The translations under genes and the position numbers were made by a program. From the sequence record NC_106514.1: DNA of 64,000 nucleotides. One strand, 5' to 3'. This DNA is from Escherichia phage vB_EcoS_ESCO40. This document shows, piece by piece, positions 1,937 through 63,290 of this stretch. The number at the start of each line of letters is the position of its first letter. Position 1 is the first letter of the stretch. Below the pieces are notes generated by a model, which made no database searches, had not been told where the DNA came from, and worked only from the letters and a program-made list of their open reading frames with translations.

Positions 1937-2329
1937 ATGGAACAAGTATATTGGCGTCAGATTGATCCTAGTTTGGTGAAGCGTGCGGAGAAGCTGCTAC
2001 AACGTTGGTTGGGGGTAAGACAAGCCTCCTTCACTTTTCCAGAGCAGCAAATAGATGATCCCTGTGTTGGTGTTTTCCTATCAGGCTACGCTAGGGAATG
2101 GGAATTGGATTGGAATGAATTGTCTGCTATGGGTTTAATTGTTGCACTAAATTTCTCTTTGTTCCATCCACGTGGTTTGGCCATATGTCGTGTGCCTGGT
2201 GACGGTTGTTCGCCCCATCTTTTACAGGTGGAAGATGATATTTGGGAGTACACTCCAGGTATTCTCAAAGAAGCTAAAGAACAATTAAATCGTGTTGGAA
2301 TCTATGTTCCGGGACTAAATGATGAATAA
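1937..2329 (+). CDS. hypothetical protein, paralog of adjacent gene
   Basis: 130-aa ORF; tandem duplicate of the 1499-1927 product by shared motif pattern. Confidence 0.55.
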   Translation: MEQVYWRQIDPSLVKRAEKLLQRWLGVRQASFTFPEQQIDDPCVGVFLSGYAREWELDWNELSAMGLIVALNFSLFHPRGLAICRVPGDGCSPHLLQVEDDIWEYTPGILKEAKEQLNRVGIYVPGLNDE

Positions 2330-2513
2330 AGAATATTGGGTATGTTATGGTAAAATTAAAAAGTGGAATAAGGGTCAACTTTCCGCTAAACAAGTAAAAT
2401 TTATGGCGAGATATTTGACTGATCCCACTTTCGATATTAAAAAGTTAAGTAGCTCAAACCGCGCTATTATACTTAAATTTGCTAATACTATTCGTGGTCT
2501 TTTTTATGATTAA
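2319..2513 (+). CDS. hypothetical protein (64 aa)
   Basis: ORF overlapping upstream stop; followed by a hairpin. Confidence 0.4.
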   Translation: MMNKEYWVCYGKIKKWNKGQLSAKQVKFMARYLTDPTFDIKKLSSSNRAIILKFANTIRGLFYD

Positions 2514-2521
2514 TCCGTATA

Positions 2522-2548
2522 ACCGAGTCATTTTGGCTCGGTTTTCTC
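2522..2548 (+). terminator. putative intrinsic terminator
   Basis: Stem AACCGAG/CTCGGTT with 9-nt loop followed by TTCTCT. Confidence 0.4.
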
Positions 2549-2589
2549 TGTACTCAAAGACACTGATAGCACCATCCGGAAAATTTTAC

Positions 2590-2618
2590 TTGCATGATAC
2601 TCAAAATCTTGATATAAT
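2590..2618 (+). promoter_or_regulatory. T5-type early promoter (family member P1)
   Basis: TTGCAT-17 bp-TATAAT followed by conserved initial transcribed sequence ATTTATATTGAATTGAGAGA. Confidence 0.7.
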
Positions 2619-3118
2619 ATTTATATTGAATTGAGAGACATTAGTAAAAATTGGTTTTACTAATTTTTCTTGTTTACAATCCGCGATACGGAACAGTTAG
2701 GCTGCCCCATTAAGGGTTGTTTTAACTGTTACGTGTTAGTTTTTAAACAAATAGTTAATAGAATACTTAGCGATCTGCGTCCCATAGGAACCCTGGTAAG
2801 GCCTCGAAGCAACCTAGTATGAGGTGGTTGTGAAGTGAGATGGGAGGAGTGAAAAACTACCGAGACGTGATTCTGTAAGTTATATTGCATCTAGTATGAG
2901 CTAGTATATGAAGCATTAGGTGAGCAAATCTGGCTTAGCGGCCATCCTCAAGGATTTGTGCGGTATAATGAGGCAGCAGCGCAGCGTGAAAGTGGAAGTT
3001 GCCACCCCACTTCAGTATTTGCGATTAATTTGTTGAGAAATTGACAGTAACAGTTGTTCTATTCTTTCTGAATAGTCCTAAAGAAAACTTATTTCATTTC
3101 CAACACAGGAGTATTGTT

Positions 3119-5908
3119 GTGTTTTCAATCCTACAAGGTCATGCAGGATTTCATCGCGATTTAGCCACAGGCAATTGGCGAGAAGTTAAAGCAGAAGATT
3201 ATCTTTTTGCTAAAAGATTTTCCTCAAAGCATCCTGAAGGTAAACCAGCTTCAATGCCCTTCAAGTTTGATGTAATTGACGAAGTTGATCCTCAAACCCT
3301 AGTAGAAATGCTCCCTCTTATGAGACGTTTAACGTCTGACCCTCATATCGTTGCGGTACGAGGTCGATGTCTTGCACCTAAAAATAATGTGCGGCGTAAG
3401 AAGGGCAACTTTAATGTATCTAATCCAAGTCATATAATCGCAATGGATGTGGATGGTATTGTAGATACAGGAGGTTGTAACAAGTTTGATCTTGTTGGCG
3501 TGGCTCGACATATTATTAGGATGTTAAATAGTATTAGTGAGGATATGTTTCCTCTTGATGCAGGGTTTATCGCTCATGCATCGTCTTCGGCTGGACTAAA
3601 ACCAGGTATCCGAATGCACTTAATACTAGAATCTAATGTTAAAGTTACACAGGGTCAGATCAAGTTCTTATTTACATCTATCAACGAAAGTAGTAGACAA
3701 AAGTATGGCTTTGATATTGCCGACTTAGCTTATTACTCTTCCGTACAGCTCCACTATTTCGCAGATCCTTTATTTATTGATGGTATAGTCGATCCGTTTA
3801 AAGCGGAGGGTGCTTCACGTCTGGTATTTGTTAAAGGCTCAAAAGTAAATTTACCTAATAATCTAGTTGACTATGAAACAACTAGAGGAGAGTTTAAAGA
3901 GGAATTCTACTCTTTACTCGATCAAATTAAAGGTAAAAAAGCTGCCTCTGATAAAGTAGAGGAAACTATCAGTGAGCTAGAAGAGGCTGATGATGGGGTA
4001 TACTTACGTATTATTCCAAAGCTATATCACCGAGCGTTAGAGGATGGGGTAGATTTTGGTTGGCTAGAAAAAGAAATCCGCCCAGCTTTATCAGAATATA
4101 TTGCAACTAAAGATAATAGCCGTAATATTCAGGATTATTTCAATAACGGACGGAAACAGGCATTAAAAGCCTTTGTGAATAACTCTAAGCGTGAGATCCC
4201 TGAAGTATTAAAAGGTATCCCCCTTAAAAAGCTAGAAACTAATTCACTAGAGACTGACAACTTCTTGAAATTAAATACTGTACCACCAGAAGGCTATATG
4301 ACTTTTGTAAAAGCAAGTCTAGGCACAGGTAAAACCACGGCGGTTGTGCGTTGGTTAGATTCAGGGGTTATTAAAGGTAATTTCTTAGCAATTACCAATA
4401 CTAGAGCACTGGTATCTTCAAATGCTAAGAAATTTAGTGCAGGACAATATGATAAGTCTGTAGATATGCTTAATTTTAAGCGTGGTGCTATTGACCGTAT
4501 GTCCACAACTATTCACTCTTTGCATAAATTCAAGAGTTTTATTGGTCAAATTGACGCAATCTTTATCGATGAATGTGATGCAGTAATGAATGACCTATTA
4601 TTCGCTCCGGTTGTTAAGCAACGTCGCGAGTGTATTCAGGTTCTTCGTGATATTCTTGCAACTGCAAAAATAATTATATTATCTGATGGGGATATTAGTG
4701 CAGAAACAATTGAAGCATATGGTTCTTTGATTGAGTTCGATAAACCAGTTGCATTTTACAATCACCACCGTAAAATGCTGTCAAAAGCTCATGCTTATGA
4801 GTTCCCTGATGAATCCAGTATTTGGGTTGCACTTCAGACTTCTCTAGAGATGGGTGAGAAATCTATTCTAGTATCTGATTGTGGCCCGGATGAGCTGAAT
4901 GAGAAAGGTATGGCACTGCGTCGTAATACGGGTGCGTTAGTTAAGGAAATCCATTCAAACTCTACCTCAGATGTGGATATTCGACGTATTCTGGATTACA
5001 CAACTAATGAACTAATTGATCAACAAATTGATTGCTTATTATGTAGTCCATCCGTAACGAGTGGTGTTGACTTTAACTATTTTGATAACGTATTTGTTAT
5101 TACTAGAACTAGTAATCAAGCGCCAAACATGCGTTTTCAAGCAATCAGGCGCGACCGTGGTGCTCAGAATATCTATTATTTTATTGATAAATCCACTAGT
5201 GGGTTCTCTGCTGGTTCTGAACAATATAATATTGATGAAGGTTGGCTGGAGTTAGCACAGCAGTTATATGCGCGTCGCAGGGAGCTAGAATCTAGGAACT
5301 ATACTAGTACTTTACGTTATTACTTGCTTGATCAAGGTGCAACTATTGATATTTTCAGCGAAAGCTGGGGAACTATTGAAGGTGCTGGTAAAGAGTACAC
5401 AGAAGAGCGAATCAAAGCTATTCTGCATTCAACTCCAGATTATTGTGCTCCACGTCATGCGGATGCGTATGAAGCTAAACTACTTCTTGTTCGCTATTAT
5501 CATCTTGAGTCTATTAAAGATGTAACAGTTGAGCATGTTGAACAATATATCAAAGATAAGCCGAATGATCGAGCTGCATTCTTCCATAAGATGCACGAGA
5601 TGTTCTGGGAAGATATTAAGAAGTGTTCAAATGTGACCATTAAACCATTCATAGAAGCTCTGAAAGGTAAGAAGAAGGACTTCTTCCTTAAAACAGGTCA
5701 GAGTGCTAACCCAAAATATGCTAGAATGTATCTTGGTATGATGGGTATTGGTAAAGATATGAACACGGAGAATATCGTAGACTGGTACAGAACCTATTGT
5801 AAAATCGAGTGTATGCCAATTCCTTATAAGTTCATGACTGACGAGGAAAAACATATGCACGATGAAGCAATGTCAGAGCTAGGTGCTAGAAATGACAGTG
5901 AAGAATAA
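3119..5908 (+). CDS. SF2 helicase-domain protein, putative replication initiator / origin-binding-like
   Basis: Walker A GTGKTT and DExD-like IFIDECD in central region; ORF open from 3041 (TTG); GTG at 3119 follows AGGAG by 7 nt; start uncertain. Confidence 0.6.
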   Translation: MFSILQGHAGFHRDLATGNWREVKAEDYLFAKRFSSKHPEGKPASMPFKFDVIDEVDPQTLVEMLPLMRRLTSDPHIVAVRGRCLAPKNNVRRKKGNFNVSNPSHIIAMDVDGIVDTGGCNKFDLVGVARHIIRMLNSISEDMFPLDAGFIAHASSSAGLKPGIRMHLILESNVKVTQGQIKFLFTSINESSRQKYGFDIADLAYYSSVQLHYFADPLFIDGIVDPFKAEGASRLVFVKGSKVNLPNNLVDYETTRGEFKEEFYSLLDQIKGKKAASDKVEETISELEEADDGVYLRIIPKLYHRALEDGVDFGWLEKEIRPALSEYIATKDNSRNIQDYFNNGRKQALKAFVNNSKREIPEVLKGIPLKKLETNSLETDNFLKLNTVPPEGYMTFVKASLGTGKTTAVVRWLDSGVIKGNFLAITNTRALVSSNAKKFSAGQYDKSVDMLNFKRGAIDRMSTTIHSLHKFKSFIGQIDAIFIDECDAVMNDLLFAPVVKQRRECIQVLRDILATAKIIILSDGDISAETIEAYGSLIEFDKPVAFYNHHRKMLSKAHAYEFPDESSIWVALQTSLEMGEKSILVSDCGPDELNEKGMALRRNTGALVKEIHSNSTSDVDIRRILDYTTNELIDQQIDCLLCSPSVTSGVDFNYFDNVFVITRTSNQAPNMRFQAIRRDRGAQNIYYFIDKSTSGFSAGSEQYNIDEGWLELAQQLYARRRELESRNYTSTLRYYLLDQGATIDIFSESWGTIEGAGKEYTEERIKAILHSTPDYCAPRHADAYEAKLLLVRYYHLESIKDVTVEHVEQYIKDKPNDRAAFFHKMHEMFWEDIKKCSNVTIKPFIEALKGKKKDFFLKTGQSANPKYARMYLGMMGIGKDMNTENIVDWYRTYCKIECMPIPYKFMTDEEKHMHDEAMSELGARNDSEE

Positions 5909-6133: not shown

Positions 6134-6162
6134 TTGCTTTCAGGAAAAATTTTCTGTATAAT
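6134..6162 (+). promoter_or_regulatory. T5-type early promoter (P2)
   Basis: TTGCTT-17 bp-TATAAT then AGATTCATAAATTTGAGAGAGGAG. Confidence 0.75.
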
Positions 6163-18640: not shown

Positions 18641-18652
18641 ATGATGTATAAT
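18624..18652 (+). promoter_or_regulatory. T5-type early promoter (P7)
   Basis: TTGGCA-17 bp-TATAAT then ATATACATAAATTTGAGAGAGAAAG; overlaps the helicase gene end. Confidence 0.65.
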
Positions 18653-18723
18653 ATATACATAAATTTGAGAGAGAAAGTTTCGGATTGATAAGAAAGTCCG
18701 AAGCAGAAAAATAAAAATTTTAG

Positions 18724-18753
18724 TTGCTAAATTCTCTCGAAATCTAGTATAAT
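18724..18753 (+). promoter_or_regulatory. T5-type early promoter (P8)
   Basis: TTGCTA-18 bp-TATAAT then ATATACATAAATTCGAGGAGAAAAC. Confidence 0.7.
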
Positions 18754-18860
18754 ATATACATAAATTCGAGGAGAAAACAAAAATTAAATTCTTCGATTAT
18801 GAAAAGCTATACTTACTAGCTAGAGGAAATTCTGACCTAATTATTAAGCTATTCAAAAGA

Positions 18861-53116: not shown

Positions 53117-53291
53117 TTAGTATAAAGCAAAAATACATCCAAGTAAACTAAATTTTTTATTTCTTGGATGGTATACTGGCAGAAAACACTATATAAAAAA
53201 GTAGAAGTCCTTCTAGGAGTTCACAGGCACGGTCGGTTATGCACAAATTGTAGAATATTTTAAATACCACACTTATAGGAGCATGAAAGAT

Positions 53292-53420
53292 ATGTCAAAC
53301 AAAAGAAAGAGCAGGCGTGGAGAAGTGTATGAAAGTTGGATAAATAGTTTTGGGTTCGGAACTATCCTATTCTTTATTTTCGTAGGTTTTTGGTTGGCAG
53401 CTATGGCGGGGTGGATTTAA
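53292..53420 (+). CDS. small membrane protein (42 aa)
   Basis: ATG 10 nt after AGGAG; basic N-terminus then one hydrophobic helix (FGTILFFIFVGFWLAAMAGW); not in the ORF track because it is under 60 aa. Confidence 0.45.
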   Translation: MSNKRKSRRGEVYESWINSFGFGTILFFIFVGFWLAAMAGWI

Positions 53421-53527
53421 TGGAATGGGTAATTATTGCACTGCTAGGGGTTGTTATTATCGGACAATGTATTTTAGATAATCACTTAGCTAGAATTGAA
53501 ACTTTACTAACGGAGAAACGTAAATGA
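53420..53527 (+). CDS. small membrane protein (35 aa)
   Basis: Start overlaps upstream stop (TAATG); hydrophobic helix WVIIALLGVVIIGQCIL. Confidence 0.4.
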   Translation: MEWVIIALLGVVIIGQCILDNHLARIETLLTEKRK

Positions 53528-59105: not shown

Positions 59106-59725
59106 ATCTGCGATTCCTTATATAATTGATAAGTTTACCGCCGATAGACTTTAAGATATACCCAATTTTTAAAGAGCGCGGCGGTAAACTTCCCGCCGTT
59201 GTAGTCCGTTGCCGTCCTACGAGATAAATAATAGCAAATACCAAAAATGGCGCAACCTTATTTTTGTAAAGAAACGTAAAGAAAGCAACACGTCCGGCGT
59301 TCACCTAAGTTTAAAGGAAACGGGCGCGCGAATACCACAAAACACAGCAGATAGGCAAGTAATTTTTTCATTTATATTTGCCTTGCCCTACTTGACAAAA
59401 CTTAAAAAGCTCAAGGCGACGATAAACGGCTTATCCCTTTATGATGGCATACCTGAAAATTTTACCGCTTTCTAGGACGTTTTAGGCGGCTTATTTTCGA
59501 CTTAACAAATATTTAACAAAAGCAAAATTGAAAAATAGTTTGAAAAGATATTGACTTTTTAAAATCAAGATTAAACGAGTTATTTTATAAAATTAATTAA
59601 TTGACTTTTATTTGACGTTGTGTATTAGAAAGATAGCAGACTAATAATTGCTAGGATGATAATCATGCTGGTGGATTGTAACAGCCTGAACTATTAGCAG
59701 ACTATTAATCACGGAAAATCTCATT

Positions 59726-59754
59726 AGCCAACTAACTATTTCCTGAGTTATAAT
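59726..59754 (+). promoter_or_regulatory. promoter-like element with T5-type downstream leader (P10)
   Basis: TATAAT followed by ATAAGCATAAATTAATGAGAT matching the conserved leader of the early promoters; weak -35 (AGCCAA). Confidence 0.45.
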
Positions 59755-59805
59755 ATAAGCATAAATTAATGAGATAATAATAATTATAAGAAATCGTAAC
59801 CAATA

Positions 59806-59897
59806 GAAATAATAACTATAAAAATAATAACTATAAAAATAATAACTATAAAAATAATAACTATAAAAATAATAACTATAAAAATAATAACTATAAG
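59806..59897. repeat. 15-bp tandem repeat, about 6 copies
   Basis: AATAACTATAAAAAT repeated head to tail. Confidence 0.9.
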
Positions 59898-59934
59898 AAA
59901 CTATCGGCCTAAGTGAGAACCACTATCATTTAAG

Positions 59935-59943
59935 TTATCCACA
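59935..59943 (+). promoter_or_regulatory. DnaA box (perfect 9-mer)
   Basis: TTATCCACA. Confidence 0.5.
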
Positions 59944-59994
59944 AGTTTATTAACAGCACTTTTTGACTTGACACGATAGGCGGCGATATAAGGG

Positions 59995-60044
59995 CTTATC
60001 CACAGACTTATCCACAGGTTATCCTACTGTATAAATATACAGGG
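59995..60044 (+). promoter_or_regulatory. composite element A: two tandem DnaA boxes plus a LexA-box-like palindrome
   Basis: TTATCCACA at 59996-60004 and 60008-60016, then TACTGTATAAATATACAGGG (CTGT-N8-ACAG) at 60025-60044. Confidence 0.55.
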
Positions 60045-60308
60045 TAGAAAGGTAGTGTTAACAACTGCAATCAATTTTAAGCGGCCTAAATCGCTTTCTA
60101 ACGAGCTAAATGCAGTGGGGTAATATTAAAGTAAAGCCTTCACCCGCCGCCCTGGTGGCTTCGCCGTGTTTTGCTCTTTACTATACCGCTGCGCGGTTAG
60201 CATAAAACTAGGCGTTAGGCAAGGAAAATAAAAAGGTAAAATAATATTTGCCCCTAGAAAGAAAATACCCTTATCATTCACTCACCGATTAACGAGGGAG
60301 TCCAACAA

Positions 60309-62814: not shown

Positions 62815-62820
62815 CAACAA

Positions 62821-62844
62821 ACGGGGAGCAGATCCCCGTTTTTC
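62821..62844 (+). terminator. intrinsic terminator
   Basis: ACGGGGA-GCAGA-TCCCCGT hairpin followed by TTTTCAC. Confidence 0.7.
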
Positions 62845-62954
62845 ACACCTGCAACCAGATAACCCCTTGTTTTAGTATCCCCGCCAAAATTAAACGCGTT
62901 AGAATGCGATCTAGGACGTTTTAAGCCTATATTAGAATTATTCACTGCATAGGA

Positions 62955-63064
62955 ATACTGTATAAATATACAGTAGAATAACCTGGGGATAAGTCTGTGG
63001 ATAACGCTTCAAAATGGCTAGGATTCTGTCAAGGCAAATCGTGCTGTTGATAAGTCTGTGGATA
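62955..63064 (-). promoter_or_regulatory. composite element B: LexA-box-like palindrome plus two DnaA boxes, inverted relative to element A
   Basis: TACTGTATAAATATACAGTA at 62955-62974 (one mismatch to the SOS-box consensus as recalled); TGTGGATAA at 62995-63003 and 63056-63064. Confidence 0.55.
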
Positions 63065-63093
63065 ACCTAAATAACAGTGTTTCTCACTTCCAT

Positions 63094-63290
63094 TCTTAAA
63101 TGAGAATCATTATCATTCGCATTCCACTATCTAACCGATAATCATTTCCTTTCTTAAATGAGAATCATTTCACTTTTTGAATAGTTCTCATTCTCTTTCT
63201 TAAATGAGAATCAATCTCATTTCATTTTCTAAATGCGAATTATTATCATTCTCATTCCGCTTTTTAAATGATAATGATTCTCATTATCAT
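63094..63290. repeat. array of about 5 AT-rich direct repeats (TCTTAAATGAGAATCAT-type)
   Basis: Copies at about 63094, 63153, 63198, 63227 and 63262; the last contains GATAATGATTCTCATTATC, 17 of 19 matches to the Fur-box consensus as recalled. Confidence 0.7.

Follow-up and report, generated by a model that had tools for sequence, protein, structure and literature searches.

A conserved, elaborately folded RNA ahead of the replication helicase gene of T5-like phages

Main finding

The sequence analysed here, called the window, is a 64,000-nucleotide (nt) stretch of Escherichia phage vB_EcoS_ESCO40 (NC_106514.1). Its interval 2514-3118 carries no long open reading frame (ORF) and lies directly upstream of a gene for a 929-amino-acid (aa) helicase. 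The best reading of this interval is a conserved and elaborately folded RNA outside every catalogued family, i.e., a new family within the large structured phage RNAs. The element is almost certainly a real structured RNA encoded on the + strand. A sequence-only reading had proposed a candidate structured RNA or long leader here, and this was upheld by compensatory changes across diverged relatives and by the fixed length of the interval.

For the role of the element, a new family of large phage RNA is proposed, which would be co-transcribed with the helicase gene and probably freed by ribonuclease III (RNase III) at a long closing stem, named P0. The chances of this proposal are judged to be about even.

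The window belongs to a T5-like phage (Tequintavirus, Demerecviridae). Positions 2300-3400 showed 99.5% identity to Escherichia phage IrisVonRoten and 99.2% to Salmonella phage S130. The central approximately 300 nt of the interval occurs in at least two forms among relatives, i.e., the window-like type A and the type B of T5 and Epseptimavirus, which are barely alignable and of equal length. Short islands are common to both centres, e.g., GATCTG, GGCTTAGCGGCC, and CAGC.

Covariation in the core

Compensatory base changes in related phages had been named as a check on the candidate RNA, and they were found. A plain MAFFT alignment of seven sequences was used as RNAalifold input, i.e., window 2772-2987, three type A variants, the metagenomic locus L049, and two Pectobacterium phages. 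RNAalifold predicted 50 pairs, and 28 of them carried compensatory double changes. In this alignment 94.5% of cells paired, vs 80.8% after column shuffling and 37-46% with slid partners. The observed value was matched on any measure by none of 500 shuffles.

The covariance model R1 was built from those seven sequences, with no T5-, Epseptimavirus-, or Klebsiella-type members in it. R1 found the members of these three types at full length, with ends at helix P1 as set by eye (18-21 bits, rough E-values of 0.002-0.007). In the larger alignment A4 (21 distinct sequences), 93.8% of cells paired, vs 76.3% for shuffled and approximately 39% for slid columns, and 37 of the 50 pairs changed on both sides, which was reached by 0 of 500 shuffles; these shuffle statistics are inflated, because A4 was fitted to the model and its sequences are related. 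On the MAFFT-only result together with the blind recovery of the boundaries, the signal is judged to be real.

The strand was assigned from G-U pairs, which made up 131 of 935 paired cells. These pairs would become A-C on the other strand, and a minus-strand reading would pair only 79.8% of cells. The RNA is therefore placed on the + strand.

The length of the core was also kept. It ranged over 212-222 nt in eight of nine sequence types, and the ninth had 236 nt.

The closing stem P0

The two strands of P0 enclose a three-way junction, which is composed of the approximately 210-nt multi-helix core (2770-2987, closed by helices P1a and P1) and the hairpin P6. Both the minimum free energy (MFE) and the centroid folds of the full-length sequence hold P0. 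By RNAduplex, the P0 strands gave -39 to -49 kcal/mol, vs about -23 to -28 kcal/mol for shuffled partners. The z-score of the duplex was -4 to -6 in seven of ten types and weaker in L049, Providencia, and especially Klebsiella.

MAFFT left P0 and the P5 module partly out of structural register, and for this reason per-sequence folds and an 8-mer enrichment test were used for these parts. Nine types were each folded independently with the core swapped for a tetraloop. P0, the three-way junction of P1a/P1 and P6, and the hairpin P7 were always obtained. Across 11 representatives, P0 comprised 23-38 flank-to-flank pairs, including 3-10 G-U pairs, and the identity of the P0 strands between types was only 38-66%. 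P0 is a stem of the kind looked for in RNase III precursors, i.e., approximately 20 base pairs (bp) or more formed by the flanks.

An inverted repeat had been noticed in this part of the interval. It is present, with 12-nt arms at 2688-2699 and 2723-2734 which are 92% complementary and 23 nt apart, and its local hairpin reached -23.1 kcal/mol (z = -4.9). As a conserved pairing the repeat failed: its right arm AACTGTTAC (2724-2732) pairs instead with GTAACAGTT (3047-3055) in all lineages, and this pairing is the outermost part, i.e., the base, of P0. At the pair 2728/3051, type A has G-C and T5 itself has G-U, and A-U is found in most type B phages (four GC, three AU, and one GU in alignment columns 16-150). 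The left arm of the repeat keeps its C, and a C-A mismatch therefore results in the type B phages with A-U. The Pectobacterium phages are without the inverted-repeat pairing altogether. Since 2728/3051 covaries while the inverted repeat breaks, it is P0 that selection maintains. The repeat hairpin may be a transient co-transcriptional alternative.

Helices and motifs of the RNA

The features of the RNA and its flanks are collected in Table 1.

Table 1. Features of the RNA element and its surroundings in the window
Feature	Position	Strand	Remarks
Terminator of the upstream ORF 2319-2513	2521..2543	+	Intrinsic; 10-bp stem then T-run; relatives annotate the same terminator
Promoter	2590..2618	+	T5 early-type sigma-70, TTGCAT-17-TATAAT; seven-member family in the window; kept in 12 diverged lineages
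S1	2634..2670	+	A/U-rich 5' hairpin, AGAGACATTAGTAAAA / TTTTACTAATTTTTCT, then U-rich tract; -12.3 kcal/mol, z = -3.85
S2	2685..2710	+	GATACGGAA-CAG-TTAGG-CTG-CCCCAT; small hairpin 2694-2696 / 2702-2704
P0, 5' strand of closing stem	2723..2766	+	Overlaps right arm of the inverted repeat
P1a	2770-2772 / 2985-2987	+	Conserved 2-nt AU bulge at 2773-2774
P1	2775-2780 / 2979-2984	+	5' strand CTGCGT; 100% of cells pair
P2 three-way domain	2781..2844	+	P2, P2a, and P2b
P2	2781-2785 / 2840-2844	+	98-100% of cells pair; most pairs double-changed
P2a	2792-2794 / 2799-2801	+	CCT-GGTA-AGG
P2b	2803-2806 / 2836-2839 plus 2809-2814 / 2826-2831	+	98-100% of cells pair; most pairs double-changed
P3	2846-2850 / 2856-2861	+	Hairpin, GGAGT-GAAAA-ACT(A)CC; 5/5 pairs double-changed
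Joining strand	2862..2869	+	GAGA(A/C)GTG; present in type A, L049, both Pectobacterium phages, and the Klebsiella type
P4	2888-2898 / 2914-2922	+	CATCTAGTATG / CATTAGGTG; 8/9 pairs change on both sides
P5	2924-2931 / 2952-2959	+	Encloses P5a; helix 9; 8/8 pairs double-changed, 97.6% of cells pair
P5a	2932-2935 / 2940-2943	+	Hairpin; invariant CTTAGCGG at 2934-2941
P6	2990-2995 / 3007-3012	+	Hairpin, AAGTGG / CCACTT around conserved loop AAGTTGCCACC; placed by hand
P0, 3' strand of closing stem	3015..3056	+	Pairs with 2723-2766
P7	3059..3075	+	Hairpin between P0 and ribosome-binding site, CTATTC-TTTCT-GAATAG; z = -6.5
Helicase gene	3107..5908	+	Shine-Dalgarno AGGAG at 3107-3111; 929 aa; likely start GTG at 3119

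At the 5' end, the Pectobacterium, Klebsiella, and Providencia types have a hairpin of another sequence in the place of S1. Relatives with G for an A of the window form a U-G pair in S1, which is possible on the + strand only. S1 may be a 5'-end stabiliser or a weak attenuator. S2 is the most sequence-conserved motif of the element and hardly varies in Tequintavirus, Epseptimavirus, and both Pectobacterium phages, and in L049 its small hairpin reads CGG/CCG instead of CAG/CTG.

The helix P1 was found as CUGCG/CGCAG, CUACA/UGUAG, CUGUA/UACAG, CUACAC/GUGUAG, CUAGAA/UUCUAG, and CUGUG/CACAG. P2b contains a GAA / GAAGT internal loop and ends in an 11-nt loop, TAGTATGAGGT. The model is less secure for P3, P4, and the region 2862-2887. 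The P6 stem reads AAGGGG/CCCCTT in NBSal005-type phages, other stems are found in the T5, Klebsiella, and Pectobacterium types, and P6 was recovered in every type folded independently. P7 has no trailing U-run and is therefore not a terminator, and a hairpin of different sequence occupies its position in other types.

Invariant nucleotides concentrate in loops and joining strands, i.e., the CUUAGCGG hairpin loop, GAGAAGUG, the P6 loop, and the S2 motif. Three of these elements, i.e., the CUUAGCGG hairpin, S2, and the P6 loop, have the look of sites at which a protein or nucleic acid would be recognised. From the fold model, the CUUAGCGG loop, GAGACGUG, and the P6 loop are predicted to be reactive, and P0, P1, P2, P5, and P6 to be protected.

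A direct repeat, CTAGTATGAG(G/C)T, was found inside the RNA at 2814-2828 (P2b loop) and 2891-2905 (within P4). It may reflect a module that was duplicated within the RNA or a recognition motif common to both places. A within-phage trans target was sought for the P6 loop and rejected, as the second match was at chance level only. A boxA-like antitermination signal, TTTTTAAACAAAT, was seen by eye in the 5' strand of P0 and was dropped because T5-type sequences lack it.

Promoter and ORF-free interval

The strong promoter of the sequence-only reading (labelled P1 there, not the helix of that name) is present as TTGCAT (2590-2595), a 17-nt spacer, and TATAAT (2613-2618). It was missed by a generic promoter scan, because its -35 hexamer fits only three of six positions. 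The family TTGC-N19-TATAAT(AT) has seven sites in the window, vs 1.05 expected, i.e., 2590, 6134, 7160, 8377, 9743, 18624, and 52790 on the + strand. The site at 6134 reads like the classical T5 promoter PN25, and by analogy with PN25 the transcription start is presumably near 2625. In 12 diverged relatives, the promoter keeps a perfect TATAAT and its spacing.

At five of the six other family promoters, an ORF on the + strand begins approximately 15-58 nt past the -10 box. The next ORF is approximately 200 nt away at promoter 18624, and the gap is approximately 500 nt at promoter 2590. The absence of any ORF of at least 60 aa on either strand, as first noticed, was confirmed for 2514-3040. This is one of six ORF-free stretches of at least 200 nt in the 64 kb (ORF cut-off 60 aa, both strands). 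The others include 53117-53523, 62815-63203, and 18641-18860, the last of which follows a T5-type promoter. At 59476-60308, 833 nt without an ORF of at least 60 aa carry a cluster of promoter-like sites, and a tandem array of the 15-nt unit AATAATAACTATAAA (7.9 copies) is located at 59776-59896.

An internal TATAAT had also been pointed out. It exists at 2964-2969, and it reads TATAGC or TATAGT in the closest relatives; it is therefore not a conserved promoter. No T-arm signature of a transfer RNA (tRNA) had been noticed earlier, and in the whole window ARAGORN predicted 0 tRNA or transfer-messenger RNA (tmRNA) genes. The transcript is G-rich and C-poor, with a GC skew of +0.27 to +0.41 over 2750-3050, and A/T-rich DNA flanks the core. 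This composition and the dense structure would shield the approximately 500-nt untranslated stretch from Rho.

Conservation among relatives

The interval was matched by 536 phage records, and its length stays at approximately 600 bp even where only 48-60% aligns. In the alignment of IMG/VR loci, the 5' approximately 150 nt (promoter, S1, S2, and inverted repeat) and the last approximately 75 nt (P7 and ribosome-binding site) were almost invariant. More distant lineages share the layout, i.e., a terminator, a promoter with a perfect TATAAT and a 17-18-nt spacer, and an ORF-free leader of 474-767 nt. These lineages are Klebsiella phages, Pectobacterium phages DU_PP_V and My1, the metagenomic L049, Proteus phage Stubb, and a Providencia phage. 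Aeromonas and Vibrio relatives likewise have long promoter-led regions before the helicase gene. In Aeromonas phage TS3 and the Vibrio phages Brizo and PG07 these regions are unannotated and measure approximately 640 nt to 1.6 kb, and in Vibrio phage D145 a region of approximately 700 nt before the gene carries only very short annotated ORFs.

In three loci (L032, L015, and L027, i.e., NR01-, DT57C-, and HildyBeyeler-type), a 97-nt insertion was found at the point matching approximately 2672 of the window, directly after S1. The insertion has TTTTTCTT at either end and holds a hairpin, ATTTACGG...CCGTAAAT. Either a small mobile element that inserted here or an additional RNA module could explain it.

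This insertion, the 2-5 short hypothetical ORFs which some database records annotate within the interval, and the very different central cassettes between nearly identical flanks would fit an interval with no RNA function, i.e., a decayed gene, small protein genes, a degraded intron, or a mobile-element scar. This explanation is close to refuted. The length and the pairing are kept through near-complete sequence turnover. ORFs of at least 30 aa differ among the 10 types in position, frame, and strand, none of them is common across types, and small protein genes were rejected since no reading frame is conserved across lineages. The degraded intron of the sequence-only reading is likewise rejected, as no intron model matched even at E <= 10, and the element is placed between the terminator at 2521-2543 and the start codon at 3119, with no flanking exons.

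The 8-mer CTTAGCGG, i.e., the P5a loop with its closing pairs, occurred 48 times in 41.6 kb of upstream regions (+ strand) and not once in the remaining 383 kb of locus sequence with both strands counted. Phages of Proteus, Providencia, and Aeromonas also carry the invariant CUUAGCGG loop. The 8-mer with complementary arms was found in Proteus phage Stubb, in Providencia phages, and twice in Aeromonas phage TS3. By hand, P1 (CUUUG/CAAAG, 222 nt apart), P2, and P0 were traced in the Providencia RNA.

In the TS3 locus, positions 270-1530 are an ORF-free and densely folded region of approximately 1.25 kb upstream of the helicase gene. The 8-mer modules are at 498 and 742, and a 14-bp long-range helix joins approximately 815-835 with approximately 1445-1462. 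A strong terminator at 1478-1525 (-28.4 kcal/mol, then U6) stands approximately 90 nt before the helicase gene. This region may be a much-expanded relative of the RNA. In Proteus phage Stubb, one promoter with 12 of 12 consensus positions precedes the RNA (705-733) and another separates it from the gene (1435-1464), and in Vibrio phage D145 the helicase gene is closely preceded by two terminators. When IMG/VR was scanned with a degenerate S2 pattern, the T5-like contigs and seven others were returned. The seven are regarded as chance matches, because the core is absent from all of them.

Search for known RNA families

The covariance-model scan against Rfam 15 assigned the element to no family, including GOLLD, ROOL, 6S, RNase P, tmRNA, and riboswitches. 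At the gathering threshold there were 0 matches in the whole window. At E <= 10 nothing was found in the core when 2400-3250 was searched, and at E <= 0.1 nothing was found in the RNA region of twelve diverged relatives. A weak match to the small RNA MicF (RF00033) lies outside the element at 2462-2549 (+ strand), over the 3' end of ORF 2319-2513 and its terminator. It scored 33.7 bits (E = 0.006) against a gathering score of 79, so that membership was rejected, and it is probably driven by the terminator of ORF 2319-2513 and A/T-rich sequence.

By blastn, no similarity was found in 5,426 complete Escherichia coli genomes, and therefore no obvious host RNA is mimicked. The anti-retron factor Rad of the T5 family was also considered, and it is a protein and unrelated. 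In the literature search, which most subscription journals lay outside, no RNA was described at this locus and no T5 study covered the interval. In the HIDEN-SEQ essentiality preprint, phage T5 appears only in a plaque-assay legend, and no match to T5-like, Tequintavirus, or Demerecviridae was found.

Genomic setting

The upstream neighbour of the interval is a 64-aa ORF at 2319-2513, and its terminator sets the transcription unit of the RNA apart from the upstream genes. Tandem paralogous genes with two DUF7415 repeats each are located just upstream of the element at 1499-1927 and 1937-2329.

Downstream, the 929-aa product matched Pfam Herpes_ori_bp (E = 3e-7) and PHROG 3712, 'replication origin binding', and relatives annotate it as 'replication origin binding protein' or 'DNA primase'. 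It appears to be a UL9-like superfamily 2 (SF2) helicase and seems to be the same protein as 'D2' (PMC3632103), a name which is applied inconsistently among T5-family annotations. The gene opens a same-strand replication module, followed by ligase, helicase, primase, polymerase, and single-stranded DNA-binding protein. The N-terminal 390 aa (window 3119-4288) carry AMDVDG, SSSAGLKPGIRMH, and HYFADP, which are similar to motifs I-III of archaeo-eukaryotic primase-polymerases. From these motifs, a primase-polymerase domain is suspected, which would make the product a primase-polymerase/helicase fusion. The N-terminal domain had no match to any PDB sequence, and its single-sequence AlphaFold model was uninformative (predicted local distance difference test, pLDDT, of 33).

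This setting also suggests a replication origin with a primer or activator transcript, where a persistent RNA-DNA hybrid or duplex opening would start DNA synthesis. The locus heads the replication module directly upstream of a gene annotated as an origin-binding protein, and it is located at approximately 48-49% of the genome in a 121,750-bp contig taken to be T5. By electron microscopy, Bourguignon et al. in 1976 are said to have placed an early origin near the centre. The G-rich transcript would favour R-loops, A/T-rich DNA flanks the core, and ColE1 RNA II is likewise a structured pre-primer of approximately 550 nt. An origin of this kind is nevertheless distinctly improbable. Neither iterons nor repeated protein-binding boxes were found in the interval, where direct repeats were limited to two short two-copy families with no tandem repeats, and a scan of 2514-3118 showed no convincing minus-strand (antisense) promoter. 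The conserved hairpin loops and the closed multi-helix core suit a folded free RNA and not a hybrid-forming primer, and the phage carries a separately annotated DNA primase. The published 'origin' of a T5-like phage, i.e., its GC-skew minimum, is approximately 3.5 kb further upstream (PMC5519627).

Proposed mechanism

Under the proposal of a co-transcribed RNA freed at P0, transcription by the host RNA polymerase would begin near 2625 and run on across the interval into the helicase gene. A scan of the window found no terminator between the promoter at 2590-2618 and this gene. The P0 strands would pair across approximately 300 nt and form a long irregular stem around the folded cargo. A double-stranded stem of approximately 30 bp is a classic RNase III substrate in RNA processing of E. 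coli. By its length and by a flanking arrangement like that of ribosomal RNA (rRNA) precursors, P0 is probably a processing stem. Excision of the RNA at P0, as judged from these features, is given an even chance. Cleavage by RNase III would free a stable RNA of approximately 300-330 nt and leave a trimmed helicase messenger RNA (mRNA) beginning just before P7 and the ribosome-binding site. The freed RNA would most likely work as a protein-binding scaffold or as a regulator tied to the replication module. Action in trans rather than only in cis is considered a little short of even. From the fixed place at the head of the replication module, control or initiation of replication is the most economical guess for its task.

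A purely cis-acting leader is rather unlikely. In this explanation, the RNA would serve the helicase mRNA as an operator or sensor, through which a phage or host protein or a small molecule sets the translation, stability, or read-through of that mRNA, and it would have no role as a free RNA. The place immediately before the helicase gene is constant across the family, and in the window and all Markadamsvirinae examined the RNA stands between the only nearby promoter and the start codon, without a terminator. The S2/inverted-repeat hairpin and the outer P0 are mutually exclusive, which makes a possible switch. However, no expression platform was found, and no terminator follows the domain. The ribosome-binding site at 3107-3111 is unpaired with the conserved domain in the MFE and centroid folds, and approximately 50 nt and P7 separate it from P0. 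A domain of 330 nt and roughly 11 helices, or approximately 1.25 kb in TS3, far exceeds known protein operators. The perfect promoter between RNA and gene in Stubb and the terminators at this place in TS3 and D145 also stand against a leader; such signals in the Proteus, Aeromonas, and Vibrio relatives favour an RNA with its own job.

Several results weigh against the main proposal. The free RNA rests wholly on the putative RNase III step, because no discrete 3' end or terminator is predicted in the window, and the constant co-transcription with the helicase gene in Markadamsvirinae fits a cis leader equally well. Folded as a single sequence, the RNA stood out only modestly in its energy, with z-scores of -2.47 (+ strand) and -2.11 (- strand). 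P3 is the weakest helix, with 78.8% of cells pairing, and P4 is less certain, with 86.9%. With filters off, R1 gave noise only on the Proteus, Providencia, Vibrio, and Aeromonas loci, and at the expected Providencia site it scored 8.3 bits, which is not significant. The suggested homology of the Proteus, Providencia, and Aeromonas regions is thus based on the CUUAGCGG module and analysis by hand. In the Vibrio phages, the long ORF-poor region alone was seen, with a fold z-score of only -0.8.

In the most far-reaching proposal, the RNA would be integral to replication initiation in the T5 family. It could be the partner of the helicase (possibly also a primase-polymerase) in a ribonucleoprotein, bound in cis by the nascent enzyme and loading it at a nearby origin, or a self-assembling particle of the GOLLD/ROOL type. 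This is regarded as improbable.

Comparison with known systems

GOLLD and ROOL (PMC5737381; 10.1101/2024.12.08.627333) resemble the element in being phage-encoded RNAs of several hundred nt, with covarying helices, conserved loops, and neither coding capacity nor an assigned function. The element matched neither of their models at the gathering score or at E <= 10. It precedes a replication helicase gene, whereas GOLLD and ROOL are found near tRNA genes, and it is closed by a long double-stranded stem and co-transcribed with an mRNA.

The element and the RNase III stems, i.e., the 16S/23S rRNA flanks, the T7 R sites, and the lambda N leader, share a long, irregular, G-U-bearing predicted stem, flanks which pair around a folded RNA, and a transcript that continues into downstream genes. 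However, the cargo is neither rRNA nor tRNA here, and the T7 and lambda sites are simple hairpins of approximately 60 nt without cargo. A strong promoter, an untranslated transcript of approximately 500 nt, and a replication neighbourhood are shared with ColE1 RNA II, T4 oriF/oriG, and the T7 primary origin, and the ColE1 transcript is structured as well. ColE1 RNA II differs in its antisense RNA I, as no promoter of that kind was found in the scan of the interval, and in its serial stem-loops leading to a hybrid-forming segment, where the element has a closed ornate domain. Riboswitches and protein-binding leaders, e.g., the ribosomal-protein and T4 gene 32/43 operators, also carry a folded conserved domain in the 5' untranslated region. 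The element is much larger, has no expression platform that could be found, and is uncoupled from the gene by a promoter or terminator in the Proteus, Aeromonas, and Vibrio relatives.

Significance

T5 is one of the founding model phages; its relatives belong to the enterobacterial phages isolated most often, and phage-therapy collections make wide use of them. The replication module of these phages is headed by a 330-430-nt RNA with covariation of ribozyme or riboswitch grade, which almost all genome records leave unannotated or mislabel as short 'hypothetical proteins'. At minimum, the covariance model and the CUUAGCGG signature permit correct annotation in more than 500 genomes. If the element is a functional RNA, it adds a family to a class with very few members, the large structured phage RNAs, and offers a tractable genetic system, i.e., E. 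coli K-12 with T5 or BASEL phages, and it may have a bearing on how T5 replication is initiated. If it proves to be a replication component or a particle, a large functional RNA, reaching approximately 1.25 kb in Aeromonas relatives, would have been overlooked for 60 years in a classic phage.

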